From assembly GCA_030840645.1 (NCBI GenBank), contig JAVEEC010000020.1, forward strand, positions 173-64,172: a DNA stretch of 64,000 bases, written 5' to 3'. The DNA comes from Frankiaceae bacterium (lineage in GTDB: Bacteria > Actinomycetota > Actinomycetes > BP-191). The notes beneath the pieces were generated by a model. It had not been told where the DNA came from and did no database searches. It saw only the letters and a program-made list of their open reading frames with translations. A program made the position numbers and the translations under genes. Shown here in pieces: positions 52,923 to 57,336 of the stretch. Positions within the stretch are counted from its first letter, which is position 1, and each line of letters opens with the position of its first letter.

Positions 52923-55178
52923 CTACCCGACCGCGGCGAGCCGGCGGACCGCGCGCATCCGCAGGGTGAACGTGCTCCCCCCGCCCGGCGCCGGCGCGAC
53001 GTCGAGCGTGCCGCCCATCGTGGTCGCGAGGTGCCGGGCGATGTAGAGCCCGAGCCCGGTCCCGGTCTGCGCCGGCGTGTCGGCGAGCCGCTCGAACCGC
53101 TGGAAGATGCGTTCCCTGGCCTCGGGCGGGATGCCGGGCCCGCGGTCGGTCACCGCGATCGACACGATGCCGGACGCGCGCTCGATCGAGACGTCGATCG
53201 GGAGGCCCTTCGGGGCGTACTTCACGGCGTTGGCGACGAGGTTGGTCACCACCTGCTCGATCCGGACCGCACGACCGGCGACGAACGCCACATCGTCCGC
53301 GCCGGAGAGCACGATCCGCCGGTCCGGCGCGAGCAGCGCGAAGTCGTCGACGACCTTCGCGACGGCGGCGGCCGCGTCGACCGCCTCCTCGGTCGCCGGC
53401 CCGGCGTTGAGATCGGTCTCGACCCGGCTGTCCTCGAGGATGTTGAGGATCAGCTGGTGCAGCCGGTCGGCCTGCCGCAGGATCGCGCGCGCGCCCTCCT
53501 GCCGCTGCTCCGCCGACAGCTCGTCGGCGCGCTGCAGGAGCGTGACGGCCCAGCCCTTGATCGGCGCCAACGGCGTCCGCAGCTCGTGCGACACGACCGC
53601 GACGAAGTCGTCCTTCAGCTTGTCGAGCTCGTGCACCTTGGTGACGTCGCGGGCCATCACGACGAGCTGCGCGCCGCGGCCGTCGCGGGCGGGCAGGTGG
53701 CCGTACGTGCAGGACAGCCAGCGCGACTGCCCGTCCTCGCAGGTGACCTCGACCGCCGTCGGCAGCGCCGCCGTCCGGCCCGCCCAGGCGGCGAGGTCGA
53801 GCGGCGCGCCCTGGCCGTCGCGCGGCCGCAGCACGCCGTCCGGCAGGCGCCCCACCATGACCTCGGCGTCGTACCCGGTGATCTGCTCGATGCCGGCGTT
53901 CCACGTCGTCACGACGCCGCCCGCGTCGAGGGTGAGGATGCCGTCGGAGGTGTTGCCGACGATGTCGGCGAGCCGGCGCCGTTCGTCCAGGATCGCGTCG
54001 AGCAGCGCCGCCTTGTCCAGCGCGCCGGCGACCTCGGCGGCGAGGGCTTCGAGGACCGCGACCTCGCCGCGTTCGAAGCCCTCCGTCCCGCCGCGGTTGT
54101 AGACGCAGAGCACGCCGAACGACTTCTCGCCGGTCCGCACCGGCGCGGCGGCGGCGACCCGCCAGCCTTCGCGGGCGAGCAGCGCGTCGTCGCGCGAGTC
54201 GACCACGAGCGAGCCGCCGCCCGACACCATGGCGAGCAGCGCGGCGGTCGACGTGCCGTCGTCGGGACCCGCGGCGTACGGCGCGTCGCCCGCGACGCGG
54301 TGCAGGACGGGCCCCCCGGGCGAGAGCTCGAGCAGGTCGACGGCCTCGGCCTCGAAGCAGTGGCGCACCTCGGCGAGGAACGCCGGCACGGCCTCGCGCG
54401 GGTCGATCGGCCGGGCGAGCGCGTGGGTCGCGGCCTGGAGGCCGGCCAGGCGGACGCGGTCGGTGCGCGCGGTCGCGAAGCCGCGGCTCCCCCAGTGCAG
54501 GACCACGAGCGGCGCGACCATGAGGACGACGGCGAACGGCGTGCGCAGGTACGCGGACACGAACAGGAGGCCGAACACCAGGTTGGCGGCCGAGCCGCCG
54601 ACCCAGCCGATCGGGATGACCGGCCGCAGCTCGGCGAGCACCACGCGGATCGGCCGCCGCGTCGCCAGCGCGAGGACGGCGGCGACCGACGTGTAGTTGA
54701 CGACCGCGACGACGAGGATCGCCAGCGCGAGCGCGAGGACGTTGCGCGCCGGCAGCCCCTCGCCGGAACGCAGCGCGGCGAACACCAGCGCGCCGCAGCC
54801 GGTCGCCGCGCCCCACTGCGCGGCGTTGAACGTCGTCTTCACCGGGGCGTTGCGGTGCAGCGCGCCGACCAGCCCCTTCGCGACGATCGCGAGGCCGACC
54901 GCGACCGGGCCGGGGAACACGACGATGGTCGGCGCGAGCACCGCCTCGAACAGGTCGAGCGCCTCCATGTCGTCGCCGCACTGGACCCGGATCAGCAGGT
55001 GGCTGGCGAGCGCGAGGACGGCGAGGACCAACGGCGCCTGGCCCCACGGCGTCCCGCCGTGCCGGCCCGCGACCGCCTCGGCCGCGAGCCCGGTCCCCAG
55101 GGCCGTGGCGAACAGCAGCGCGCTGAACGCCGCGATCCGCCAGTCCCTCCCCGGGGCGGTCTCGGGTCCGTCGGTCAC
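52923..55178 (-). CDS. Sensor histidine kinase: polytopic membrane domain, GAF, PAS, HisKA, HATPase_c (orphan)
   Basis: 751 aa from GTG 55178 (overlaps the S8 stop, GTGA). About 8 hydrophobic helices with short loops. PAS (TSDGILTLDAGGVVTTWNAG). H-box SHELRTPLAPIKG, N-box NLVANAVKY, G-boxes DRGPGI and GTGLGLYI. The 1414-aa ORF-track entry is this gene plus a shadow of the S8 gene. Confidence 0.9.
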   Translation of the reverse strand: MTDGPETAPGRDWRIAAFSALLFATALGTGLAAEAVAGRHGGTPWGQAPLVLAVLALASHLLIRVQCGDDMEALDLFEAVLAPTIVVFPGPVAVGLAIVAKGLVGALHRNAPVKTTFNAAQWGAATGCGALVFAALRSGEGLPARNVLALALAILVVAVVNYTSVAAVLALATRRPIRVVLAELRPVIPIGWVGGSAANLVFGLLFVSAYLRTPFAVVLMVAPLVVLHWGSRGFATARTDRVRLAGLQAATHALARPIDPREAVPAFLAEVRHCFEAEAVDLLELSPGGPVLHRVAGDAPYAAGPDDGTSTAALLAMVSGGGSLVVDSRDDALLAREGWRVAAAAPVRTGEKSFGVLCVYNRGGTEGFERGEVAVLEALAAEVAGALDKAALLDAILDERRRLADIVGNTSDGILTLDAGGVVTTWNAGIEQITGYDAEVMVGRLPDGVLRPRDGQGAPLDLAAWAGRTAALPTAVEVTCEDGQSRWLSCTYGHLPARDGRGAQLVVMARDVTKVHELDKLKDDFVAVVSHELRTPLAPIKGWAVTLLQRADELSAEQRQEGARAILRQADRLHQLILNILEDSRVETDLNAGPATEEAVDAAAAVAKVVDDFALLAPDRRIVLSGADDVAFVAGRAVRIEQVVTNLVANAVKYAPKGLPIDVSIERASGIVSIAVTDRGPGIPPEARERIFQRFERLADTPAQTGTGLGLYIARHLATTMGGTLDVAPAPGGGSTFTLRMRAVRRLAAVG

Positions 55179-56863
55179 TCCCACGCTCCGTACCAGTTGG
55201 CGCCGTACCAGTTCGCGCCATACCAGTTGGCGCCGTCGACGGTCCCGTACCAGTTGGCGCCGTACCAGTTCGCTCCGTACCAGTTGGCGCCGTACCAGTT
55301 CGCGCCGTACCAGTTGGCGCCGGCGAACCCGCTGGCGTACCAGTTGGCGCCGGTCCACTCGGTCGACGTGTAGGCGACCGGGTTCCACAGCAGCAGCTGC
55401 GCGGTCAGCATGCCGCCGACGACGGTGTGCAGCGGGTCGTCGGTCTGGACCCGGACGGAGCCGCGGCTCGCGTCGAGGCTGCCGAGGCCGTTCGACCGCG
55501 GGACGCCCTGGTTGGCGAGGCCGGCCGGCGCGAAGAACGCGCCCGCGACGTCGACCATGCCGTTGCCGACGGCCATCCGGTCGTCGGACGCGACGTCGCG
55601 CGCGCTGGCGGACAGCGCGAACTTGACCCGGTCCGGCGCCAGCGTCGGCTGCGCCGAGAGCATCAGGGCGATGGTGCCGGAGACGACGGCGGTCGCCATC
55701 GACGTGCCGCTGCCCCGGCGGTACGGCGCCGCCATGGTGGTCGGGAACTGTTGCGCCAGAGCCGATCCCGGCGCGCTCAACGACACCAGGTGGCCGCCCG
55801 GAGCAACCACGTCGGGCTTTGCGAGCCCGTCCGCGGCCGTCGGGCCGCGCGAGGAGAAGTTCGGCAGCTGGTCGTCGCTCAACGACGCCGTGCCGCGGTC
55901 GTCGACGGCGCCGACGGTGAGGACCAACGGGTCGTCGCCCGGCTTCGAGATGGTGCCGTGGGCGGGGCCGCGGTTGCTCGCGGAGACGACGACGGCGATG
56001 CCCGCGTCCCAGGCCCGCTCGACCGCGTAGTTGAGCGGGTCGACGGTGTAGCTCTGGGTCGAGTCGGTGCCGAGCGAGAGGTTGAGGACCTTGATGCCGT
56101 ACTTCTCGCGGAACGACACCGCCCACTGGATCGCGGCGATGACGTTGCTGACGTCGGCCGCGCCGTCGCGACCGGCGACCTTGATCGAGACCAGCCGCGC
56201 GGCCGGCGCGACGCCCGCGTACTTGCCGTTCGACGCGGCGCCGTTGCCGGCGATCAGGCCGGCGAGGAACGTGCCGTGACCGTAGGAGTCGCCGCAGTCC
56301 GCCTCGCCGGAGAGGTTCACGCACGGGGCGGTCTGGAGGCCGAGCAGCCCGGTGGAGACCGGCATGACGCGGCCGGCCAGGTCCGGCAGGTCGGCGATGC
56401 CGGTGTCGACGAGCGCGACGGTGACGCCGGCGCCCCTGTACCCGGCGTGCTGCACCCAGTCGGCGCGGGTGGCCTTCGCGTAGACGGACTCGACGGGGGC
56501 CGGGCCCTTCGCGGCGCCGCCCTGGACCGTGAGCCTGCGGTCCAGGGAGATGGACGCGACGGCGCCGCTCGTCGCGAGCGCCCTGATCCGGTCCGCGCGG
56601 ATGGTTGCCGCGAAGCCGTTGATCAGTCCGAGGCTCTTGGTCGGCGTGCCGCCGAGGCGGCGGACGGCGCGCTCGGCCGCGTACCCGGTGCCCGGCCGGC
56701 GGACGACGACCACCGCGACGGTGCCGCGCGCGGAGCCGAGCGCGCTGTCGACCGAGGCCCGCGCGAGCGGCCGGGCGGGGGCGGCCGTCGCGGTCGTGGC
56801 GGCCGGCAGGACGGCGAGGAACGCGGTCAGGGTGGCGGCGAGCACTGAGGTGCGCCGAACCAT
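55175..56863 (-). CDS. Secreted S8 subtilase with C-terminal (GANWY)9 pentapeptide repeat tail
   Basis: GGAGGG RBS, ATG 56863. Signal peptide MVRRTSVLAATLTAFLAVLPAATTATAAPA. I9-like propeptide. Triad motifs ALVDTGI, SYGHGTFLAGLIAG, GSGTSMATAVVSG, and oxyanion SASNRG. The tail is TGANWYASGFAGANWY(GANWY)4GTVD(GANWY)3GAWE. Confidence 0.9.
   Translation of the reverse strand: MVRRTSVLAATLTAFLAVLPAATTATAAPARPLARASVDSALGSARGTVAVVVVRRPGTGYAAERAVRRLGGTPTKSLGLINGFAATIRADRIRALATSGAVASISLDRRLTVQGGAAKGPAPVESVYAKATRADWVQHAGYRGAGVTVALVDTGIADLPDLAGRVMPVSTGLLGLQTAPCVNLSGEADCGDSYGHGTFLAGLIAGNGAASNGKYAGVAPAARLVSIKVAGRDGAADVSNVIAAIQWAVSFREKYGIKVLNLSLGTDSTQSYTVDPLNYAVERAWDAGIAVVVSASNRGPAHGTISKPGDDPLVLTVGAVDDRGTASLSDDQLPNFSSRGPTAADGLAKPDVVAPGGHLVSLSAPGSALAQQFPTTMAAPYRRGSGTSMATAVVSGTIALMLSAQPTLAPDRVKFALSASARDVASDDRMAVGNGMVDVAGAFFAPAGLANQGVPRSNGLGSLDASRGSVRVQTDDPLHTVVGGMLTAQLLLWNPVAYTSTEWTGANWYASGFAGANWYGANWYGANWYGANWYGANWYGTVDGANWYGANWYGANWYGAWE
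55190..55351 (-). repeat. 15-nt tandem coding repeat (GANWY x9)
   Basis: On the plus strand, gtaccagtt(g/c)gc(g/t)cc is reiterated with two short interruptions. It is in frame with the S8 gene and ends 12 nt before the stop. Confidence 0.9.
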
Positions 56864-57285: not shown

Positions 57286-57297
57286 CCCGTTCCGCAC

Positions 57298-57336
57298 CCG
57301 AGGCCCCGTCCCCTTCGCCGGGGGGCGGGGCCTCGG
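57298..57336 (+). terminator. Strong GC hairpin after the precursor-like peptide gene
   Basis: ccgaggccccgtcccc-ttcgcc-ggggggcggggcctcgg: a 16-bp stem with one G-U and a 6-nt loop, 13 nt after the TAA. No T tract, which is usual for high-GC actinobacteria. Confidence 0.6.

Follow-up and report, generated by a model that had tools for sequence, protein, structure and literature searches.

A predicted class I lanthipeptide precursor with a double-glycine leader, encoded apart from its probable maturation genes in an actinobacterial metagenome contig

The 64,000-nucleotide stretch of Frankiaceae DNA analysed here (the window; 73% G+C, actinobacterial and metagenome-derived) contains a small gene for a 54-residue peptide. 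Judged by its sequence, the peptide is a Gly-Gly-leader precursor of a ribosomally made peptide with post-translational modifications (RiPP) and belongs to the class I lanthipeptide leader family, as a new member of a known leader type. Probably, the gene is a satellite LanA (class I, with a leader of the LxLxKx5L...Gly-Gly family; NF038153, with relatives that match PF28317), which is sited away from its maturation genes and matured in trans. A preliminary description of the region had instead combined the peptide with a neighbouring S8 subtilase and a histidine kinase in a minimal secreted-peptide module of an undescribed type, and had named maturation in trans as a fallback. It is this fallback that we judge to be the best explanation.

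The assignment is carried by the leader, in which L4-x-L6-x-R8-x5-L14 is followed by G24-G25, with K at position 8 in most homologues. The NCBIfam model NF038153 (lant_leader_L1a, class I lanthipeptide) matches residues 2-25 with 26.0 bits, over a curated cut-off of 22, and also matches 117 of 150 relatives. Pfam PF28317 (Lant_leader_dom) is precomputed for the close homologue P0011 and for many relatives, and one relative, P0040, has already been named 'class I lanthipeptide' by NCBI. An exhaustive profile search of 1.8 billion representatives (E<=0.001) led to 323 clusters, nearly all of them peptides of 50-70 amino acids that share the leader, with the consensus M(R/K)xLxL(R/K)KExLxELxxxELxxVVGG. 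Their cores are highly divergent and rich in Cys, Thr and Ser. Rejected as family members were P0029, a low-complexity repeat protein, and P0048 and P0078, long proteins with FG-GAP-like repeats. The family is spread across several actinobacterial lineages. The window peptide is one of a closely related group that has TDPC(I/V)TxPV..C as its core (the TDPC subfamily) and occurs in soil Frankiaceae- and Mycobacteriales-type actinobacteria.

Other precursor models give lower scores. Pfam yields only sub-threshold matches for the window peptide (L_biotic_typeA, 16 bits versus 21.7), the class II lanthipeptide models stay below cut-off (plantaricin C, 13 bits versus 29), and the Pfam Mersacidin model reaches only E=0.036, on P0011. 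TIGR04149, which describes radical-SAM-modified Gly-Gly peptides, scores the window peptide at 14.5 bits versus a cut-off of 25. Coding frames across the window were assigned from codon-position G+C, and about 39 open reading frames (ORFs), including all large ones and leaving out some small ones, were scanned with Pfam. No LanM domains were present among the scanned ORFs, and radical-SAM proteins were found neither there nor in the homologous loci.

Genome mining of Bacteroidetes has revealed class I LanAs with the LxLxKx5L...GG leader in clusters that also encode a C39 protease (Walker et al. 2020, PMC7268733). Earlier, Singh and Sareen (2014, PMC3951391) had reported clusters of LanBC and C39-LanT with Gly-Gly precursors from myxobacteria and Mycobacterium tusciae, one of them thus in an actinomycete. 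The window peptide is like these LanAs in its leader motif, its Gly-Gly end, and the Ser/Thr residues upstream of Cys. In contrast to them, its gene is solitary (the 64 kb yielded neither a Lan enzyme nor an exporter), the core is strongly conserved and not hypervariable, and its relatives with the TDPC core come from soil Frankiaceae- or Mycobacteriales-type hosts. The leader is not of an undescribed type: it passes NF038153, and the motif is already in the literature (PMC7268733). The more general view, a RiPP precursor that has a Gly-Gly leader and a Cys/Thr core of the thioether type, is supported.

The leader can be connected to a particular set of enzymes. In two loci from other Joint Genome Institute (JGI) metagenomes, also of 73% G+C (L019 and L020), 12 precursors with the same leader flank genes for LanC (PF05147, 415 amino acids), LanB (PF04738 and PF14028, 1036 amino acids) and an exporter of the ATP-binding cassette (ABC) type with a Peptidase_C39 domain (PCAT); a 155-residue protein is also encoded in this cluster. 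A profile made from just those 12 leaders matches the window leader over its full length with E=2.4e-11, which indicates that the window peptide carries the recognition sequence of a LanB/LanC/PCAT pathway. The presence of so many precursors in one cluster implies that LanBC-PCAT systems of that kind accept many cores. Moreover, the leader recognition positions and the Gly-Gly pair have been kept in the stand-alone copies, and this implies the existence of partner enzymes in those genomes. The profile from the L019 cluster had no second match in the six-frame translation of the window, and no further precursors were found in the window by leader-profile search. Extra precursors with the same leader and unrelated cores are located at or near the TDPC precursor in L004, L006, L001 and L018, so that satellite loci can hold several LanA genes.

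The core peptide points in the same direction. The composition given in the preliminary description, with 4 Cys, 5 Thr and no Ser among 29 residues, is correct, and a Thr is found at position -3 or -4 of each of the four Cys. In the cores of the family (n=231), 844 of 965 Cys residues (87%) have a Ser or Thr 3-5 residues upstream, compared to 46% after shuffling of the residues (z=26). For the TDPC-type cores, the corresponding values are 96% and 44%. Such an N-to-C pairing of Ser/Thr with Cys is a requirement for lanthionines and not for disulfides, and leads to the prediction of (methyl)lanthionine rings T28-C32, T34-C37, T43 (or T39)-C47 and T50-C53 in the window peptide. In L004, T28 and C32 have been lost together. 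The internal duplication of a C-L-T-D-x-C module, to which the preliminary description had drawn attention, is present in the window peptide, but its second copy is not conserved. The duplication is not a feature of the family, because C53, the fourth Cys, is absent in about a third of the close homologues, and C32 is absent in L004.

Alternatively, the peptide could remain unmodified and form a beta-hairpin stapled by disulfides (C37-C47, with or without C32-C53), which would be exported and cleaved by a C39 ABC transporter encoded elsewhere and act as a class II-type bacteriocin or pheromone. C37 and C47 are an invariant pair, the core is similar to TDPAIFRPSTGLW, a strand-turn-strand motif in FG-GAP-like repeats, and no lanthionine enzymes were found nearby. 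In addition, the leader just passes the TIGR01847 model (bacteriocin_sig), with 16.4 bits and thus barely over the cut-off of 15.7. However, the number of Cys residues is odd in about 40% of the family cores, and 8 of 39 TDPC-type cores have three of them, so that disulfides alone would not explain the family cores. The Thr or Ser residues 3-5 positions before nearly every Cys, in cores that are otherwise very different, would be needless for disulfides. Finally, it is the model for class I lanthipeptide leaders that gives the best family match, and leaders of this kind occur together with LanB and LanC. Disulfide stapling without further modification is therefore unlikely.

The resemblance to FG-GAP-like repeats deserves a separate comment. 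The core block TDPCITRPVTGIWCL (57220..57267, codons 34-49) is closely similar to the blade motif TDPAIFRPSTGLWAIL of these repeats (PF13517), for which P0048 and P0078, both large secreted proteins, were used in the comparison. The similarity suggests a beta-hairpin shape of the core, or possibly an origin of the core from such a repeat.

That the reading frame is a genuine gene under purifying selection is clear from its conservation. The ribosome-binding site, its 5-nt spacer and the encoded 54 residues are exactly as first described, and the JGI gene caller also predicts 57121..57285 as a gene, in contig Ga0467034_0000381 (79,988 bp) of sample 3300044703. A search that covered 5.8 billion proteins, of the type proposed in the preliminary description, identified 16 homologues of 52-80 amino acids with 60-80% identity, nearly all from soil metagenomes. 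Among the homologues, R2, K3, L4, L6, L11, E13, L19 and V22 of the leader and C32 of the core are invariant, and the conserved key positions of the leader are L4, L6, L11, L14, L19, V22 and G24. In the core, 17 sequences agree without exception in T34, D35, P36, C37, T39, P41, V42 and C47. Among genomes, scanning with the core motif located a single locus, L001, and among metagenomes a single real one, L004; a match in L005 was spurious, and the viral collection contained no match. About ten TDPC-type loci have a readable gene context. When 10 loci are aligned by codons, L-TDPCITRPVTGIWC-L differs almost solely at synonymous third positions (ACC/ACG, CGC/CGG/CGT, GTC/GTG, CCG/CCC and CTG/CTC), and variation in the core block TDPCITRPVTGIWCL is likewise nearly exclusively synonymous.

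The signals around the gene are conserved as well. A GGAG-type ribosome-binding site is present at equal distance from the start in all 10 homologous loci, and a strong hairpin follows the precursor stop in each of them. In the window, this hairpin has a minimum free energy of -47 kcal/mol (z=-4.3 versus shuffles). The preliminary description had noted its presence, with a stem of 16 bp where 17 are counted. A simple promoter and terminator scan found nothing; it demands a U-tract and misses the hairpin for lack of one. Between the precursor gene and the one that follows it, the hairpin likely acts as a terminator or an attenuator.

In view of these data, it is hard to regard the reading frame as a decaying relic of a former lanthipeptide cluster with no functional product, even though no maturation genes were found in the window. 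In at least 10 independent loci, the amino-acid sequences of core and leader have been maintained while their codons drifted synonymously, ribosome-binding site and terminator hairpin have been retained, and the family is present in several actinobacterial lineages. A relic is thus very improbable.

For a satellite LanA that is matured in trans, a conceivable sequence of events can be outlined. A LanB encoded elsewhere in the genome would bind the leader and dehydrate Thr residues of the core, and LanC would then link every Cys with the dehydrated residue that lies 3-4 positions upstream of it, which could yield as many as four successive methyllanthionine rings (T28-C32, T34-C37, T43-C47 and T50-C53). 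The C39-peptidase ABC exporter would cleave after Gly25 during export. With the hairpin after the stop, the precursor transcript would probably be short and abundant. The genes for LanB, LanC and PCAT would have to be located elsewhere in the genome of this organism, and the product may have antimicrobial or signalling activity.

Several observations weigh against maturation in trans. As stated in the preliminary description, the window does not appear to contain suitable enzymes: Pfam detected no LanB, LanC, LanM, LanKC/LanL, radical-SAM, YcaO or Peptidase_C39 domains in the roughly 39 ORFs, and tblastn with the LanB and LanC of L019 found no match in the whole window. With the PCAT of L019, the only match was the generic ATPase of an iron-type ABC system (36635..37225). 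No LanB, LanC or PCAT was seen in the 57 kb upstream and the 10 kb downstream of the precursor gene; the last ~12.5 kb of the contig and the remaining genome are outside the scope of these negatives. Nor was any seen near the TDPC homologues, within 10 kb on either side in L001 and L018 and within 10 kb upstream in L016. As none is within reach of the TDPC loci, the trans partners have never been seen in the same genome as a TDPC precursor. Furthermore, the precursors of the L019 type share the leader of the window peptide, but not the TDPC core, and strong conservation of this core is atypical of promiscuous systems with many precursors. Pairwise dN/dS (the ratio of nonsynonymous to synonymous substitution rates) for the whole ORF is only 0.4-0.8, with dS compressed at 95% G+C in third codon positions; at this composition the ratio is uninformative, and the view per codon was taken instead. 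Tetranucleotide comparison does not discriminate among the high-GC loci, which all correlate at ~0.99, and so could not tie the Lan cluster of L019/L020 to the window organism. Three large minus-strand ORFs of the window (21481..24291, 936 amino acids; 16931..18448, 505 amino acids; 18488..20527, 679 amino acids) have a coding-type G+C pattern. They contain no Pfam domain and have no similarity to the LanB, LanC or PCAT of L019.

The subtilase and the histidine kinase next to the precursor gene are neighbours, and not conserved partners, of the peptide. According to the preliminary description, the three genes would form a self-contained signalling or bacteriocin module, in which leader removal would fall to the subtilase and sensing of the peptide to the kinase. 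The arrangement of the genes is as described: the subtilase has a signal peptide, is transcribed divergently, and has its start at a distance of 257 nt from the gene for the peptide, while the start of the kinase overlaps the subtilase stop (GTGA), as expected for translational coupling of the two. S8 peptidases, among them LanP, LicP and CylA, trim leaders or N-termini in lanthipeptide clusters, with trimming after Gly-Gly cleavage established for LicP and CylA, and the window enzyme is similar to them in being a secreted S8 protease next to a precursor. It differs in not being conserved beside the precursor, in its best NCBIfam similarity, which is to mycosin-type enzymes and below cut-off, and in its tail of GANWY repeats. 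Secreted S8 genes are also found 1-6 kb from the precursors in L001, L008 and L018.

Synteny and domain content nevertheless largely refute such a module. With tblastn, the window subtilase had no match in about ten homologous loci, and an orthologue of the kinase was absent from all of them, so that peptide, subtilase and kinase are not conserved together. The kinase had only weak matches in L001 (34-41% identity, E=8e-8 and 3e-4), which concern PAS regions of unrelated EAL/GGDEF genes. The S8 proteins of L001, L008 and L018 are 30-70% identical to each other, but belong to another lineage than the window enzyme (E>0.05), and they have no orthologues in the window. On this pairwise comparison, a conserved S8 partner of the peptide was rejected, and a role of the subtilase as a LanP-type leader peptidase is not supported, although the S8 domain itself is present. 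S8 genes are common in such genomes, and there are two in the window alone. A subtilase would also explain neither the Ser/Thr-Cys pattern nor the match of the leader to leaders that are recognized by LanB. As to the kinase, the prediction of about eight membrane helices is compatible with hydropathy, which suggests roughly 6-8 hydrophobic or transmembrane segments in the first ~235 residues, but the cytoplasmic GAF and PAS domains that follow had been overlooked. With these domains between the membrane region and HisKA/HATPase_c, and with PnpS/PhoR-like proteins as the best NCBIfam similarities, the protein is a generic kinase and not a peptide sensor of the AgrC/ComD type, in which a polytopic sensor is joined directly to an HPK10-type kinase core. 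A refutation that the preliminary description had named for its proposal is largely borne out: distant peptides with the same leader do occur in a LanB/LanC/C39-ABC cluster, and the subtilase/kinase neighbourhood is not conserved, while close TDPC homologues were not seen beside such a cluster. The probability that the three genes act as a module is, in our estimate, minimal.

Some features of the two neighbours are worth recording for their own sake. The C-terminus of the subtilase consists of ~10 tandem GANWY pentapeptide repeats, with a 15-nt period in the DNA (55184..55352, minus strand). This tail, rich in Trp and Tyr, might be a cell-wall or carbohydrate anchor. A second orphan kinase with GAF, PAS and HisKA domains (61337..63376) is located within 9 kb of the first one (52923..55178). 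A response regulator for either kinase was not present among the ORFs scanned.

On the other side of the precursor gene, the neighbours are more recurrent (Table 1). Homologues of the YjbR-family gene, with 65-79% identity, directly follow the precursor in L006/L007, L008/L009 and L010, and a PF04237 gene does likewise in L014. The gene is absent from L001, L011, L012, L015, L016 and L018. YjbR is thus found directly 3' of the precursor in five contexts (the window and four groups of loci) that have otherwise different neighbours, and its retention suggests co-transcription or a functional link with the precursor. The commonest kind of neighbour are small proteins with a Sec signal and a mature part of about 40 residues with at least 4 Cys, which come after the TDPC precursor at nine of the ten loci. 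They are 60-73 residues long, often Pro-rich, and have no Pfam match. The one in the window (orf65) is 50% identical over 40 residues to the ORF that immediately follows the L001 precursor, but altogether there are at least four or five types without detectable mutual similarity. These proteins could be immunity or partner proteins, or the site could be a mere hot spot for small secreted peptides. In one lineage, the precursor is adjoined by an oxidoreductase with NAD_binding_2 and DUF1932 domains, for which a putative LanJ-like reductase role is conceivable; the window has no such gene. In L010, a deletion has fused the start of the oxidoreductase to the tail of the downstream S8 gene.

These associations raise the question whether peptide, small secreted Cys-rich protein, YjbR and sometimes an oxidoreductase of the NAD(P)/F420 type form an autonomous unit that is independent of LanBC, as a new kind of peptide-plus-partner or toxin-immunity pair. 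The frequency of the secreted proteins, the five contexts with YjbR and the oxidoreductase genes that follow in L008, L014 and L016 are in favour of such a unit. However, one and the same peptide core is accompanied by secreted proteins of several dissimilar types, and about half of the loci lack YjbR, just as about half lack the oxidoreductase. No peptide-modifying or leader-cleaving activity is known among these proteins, so that mechanistic support is lacking, and the conserved LanB/PCAT-type leader would be functionless. We regard an autonomous unit as improbable.

Table 1. Location of the precursor gene, its signals and its neighbours in the window, and of associated genes in homologous loci.
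Sequence	Feature	Coordinates	Strand	Remarks
Window	Ribosome-binding site AAGGAG	57110..57115	+	Spacer of 5 nt to ATG at 57121; read from sequence
Window	Precursor ORF	57121..57285	+	54 aa, MRKLSLSREVLAELSTDELSQVVGG/QATFVICLTDPCITRPVTGIWCLLTDGCA
Window	Leader	57121..57195	+	25 aa, MRKLSLSREVLAELSTDELSQVVGG; LxLx(K/R)x5L motif, Gly-Gly end
Window	Core	57196..57282	+	29 aa, QATFVICLTDPCITRPVTGIWCLLTDGCA; 4 Cys, 5 Thr, 0 Ser
Window	Hairpin	57298..57336	+	17 bp, perfect, G+C; directly 3' of precursor stop; without U-tract
Window	S8 subtilase, secreted	55175..56863	-	562 aa; Peptidase_S8 E=2.5e-47; signal peptide; divergent from precursor
Window	Orphan histidine kinase	52923..55178	-	751 aa; GAF, PAS, HisKA, HATPase_c (Pfam, NCBIfam)
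Window	YjbR family (YjbR/MmcQ, PF04237)	57352..57705	+	117 aa; Pfam E=5e-10
Window	Small secreted protein (orf65)	57742..57939	+	65 aa; Sec signal; ~40-aa mature part, 4 Cys; no Pfam match
L001	Small secreted protein	10233..10432		
L008	Small secreted protein	1674..1868		
L011	Small secreted protein	1651..1848		
L012	Small secreted protein	1629..1850		
L014	Small secreted protein	1965..2165		
L015	Small secreted proteins	1328..1528, 1555..1746		
L016	Small secreted protein	11121..11513		
L018	Small secreted proteins	10460..10681, 10745..10963		
L008	Oxidoreductase	770..1621		NAD_binding_2/F420_oxidored + DUF1932
L014	Oxidoreductase	1063..1902		NAD_binding_2/F420_oxidored + DUF1932
L016	Oxidoreductase	10224..11111		NAD_binding_2/F420_oxidored + DUF1932
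L010	Oxidoreductase	1765..2241		Remnant
L006	Extra precursor	3450..3626	-	Divergent or tandem
L004	Extra precursor	1313..1486		Divergent or tandem
L001	Extra precursor	~13782..13949		Divergent or tandem
L018	Extra precursor	10001..10337		Divergent or tandem

Further downstream in the window, two tandem paralogous genes (58447..59076 and 59108..59758) encode secreted proteins of 209 and 216 amino acids, which are 54% identical, have conserved Cys residues, and lack a Pfam match. At 10783..15891 (minus strand), there is a gene for a surface-type protein of 1702 amino acids with eight DUF11 repeats, SdrD_B and DUF7933. The G+C of its codon positions is unusual, with GC1 about equal to GC2, so that strand calls from a simple frame plot are misled.

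Maturation of many dispersed precursors by one enzyme has a precedent, as in the prochlorosin system numerous ProcA precursors scattered over the genome are modified by a single ProcM. The prochlorosins are class II lanthipeptides of marine picocyanobacteria (PMC10783134). Like the family of the window peptide, they combine one leader type with a Gly-Gly end and many cores, and their precursor genes are found both near and far from the synthetase. They differ in having a Nif11-type leader and a LanM (class II), instead of a short LanB-type leader together with LanB and LanC (class I). For the window family, prochlorosin-like maturation in trans is suggested by comparison of sequences and loci. 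A more far-reaching proposal can be made only tentatively, and is on balance doubtful: in soil actinobacteria of the Frankiaceae and Mycobacteriales types, the TDPC peptides may represent one conserved satellite lanthipeptide with dispersed genes, which a promiscuous LanB/LanC/PCAT set that serves at least 12 precursors would mature in trans, as a class I counterpart of the prochlorosins, and each of them may be paired with a small secreted disulfide-rich protein, often also with YjbR, as a candidate immunity protein, partner or receptor.

Two other actinobacterial groups were considered and set aside. Lanthiphages are products of class I lanthipeptide clusters with anti-phage function, which are very common in Frankia (bioRxiv 10.1101/2024.06.26.600839). 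Their core motif TxDxCxxxCxxxC also combines Thr, Asp and Cys, but the T-D-P-C...C of the window core is spaced differently. Lanthiphage clusters encode LphB and LphC with the accessory enzymes LphD and LphE, whereas the L019 cluster has a full-length LanB, LanC and PCAT, and no LphE-type gene among its called genes. As accessory enzymes and core motif differ, identity with the lanthiphages was rejected. The actinopeptins, which are class II and associated with DUF6229, are a different family.

Leader type, enzyme set and Gly-Gly export route have all been known before, and automated annotation already labels such peptides. What is new in detail is the TDPC core subfamily, its consistently stand-alone position and the recurrence of small secreted Cys-rich neighbours; a literature search for the core sequence identified no paper on this subfamily. 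For annotation, the gene should be recorded as a class I lanthipeptide precursor, and subtilase and kinase should not be drawn into its cluster. More generally, actinobacterial class I LanA genes with Gly-Gly leaders can be located tens of kilobases from any synthetase, and such stand-alone genes would escape miners that are centred on clusters, like antiSMASH and RODEO. That small secreted Cys-rich proteins are repeatedly paired with the precursor offers an inexpensive lead to immunity or partner proteins. If maturation in trans by a multi-precursor LanBC-PCAT system is confirmed, the class I lanthipeptides would gain a combinatorial system similar to that of the prochlorosins, and the TDPC core, with its unusual conservation, would become a candidate for having a specific biological target.

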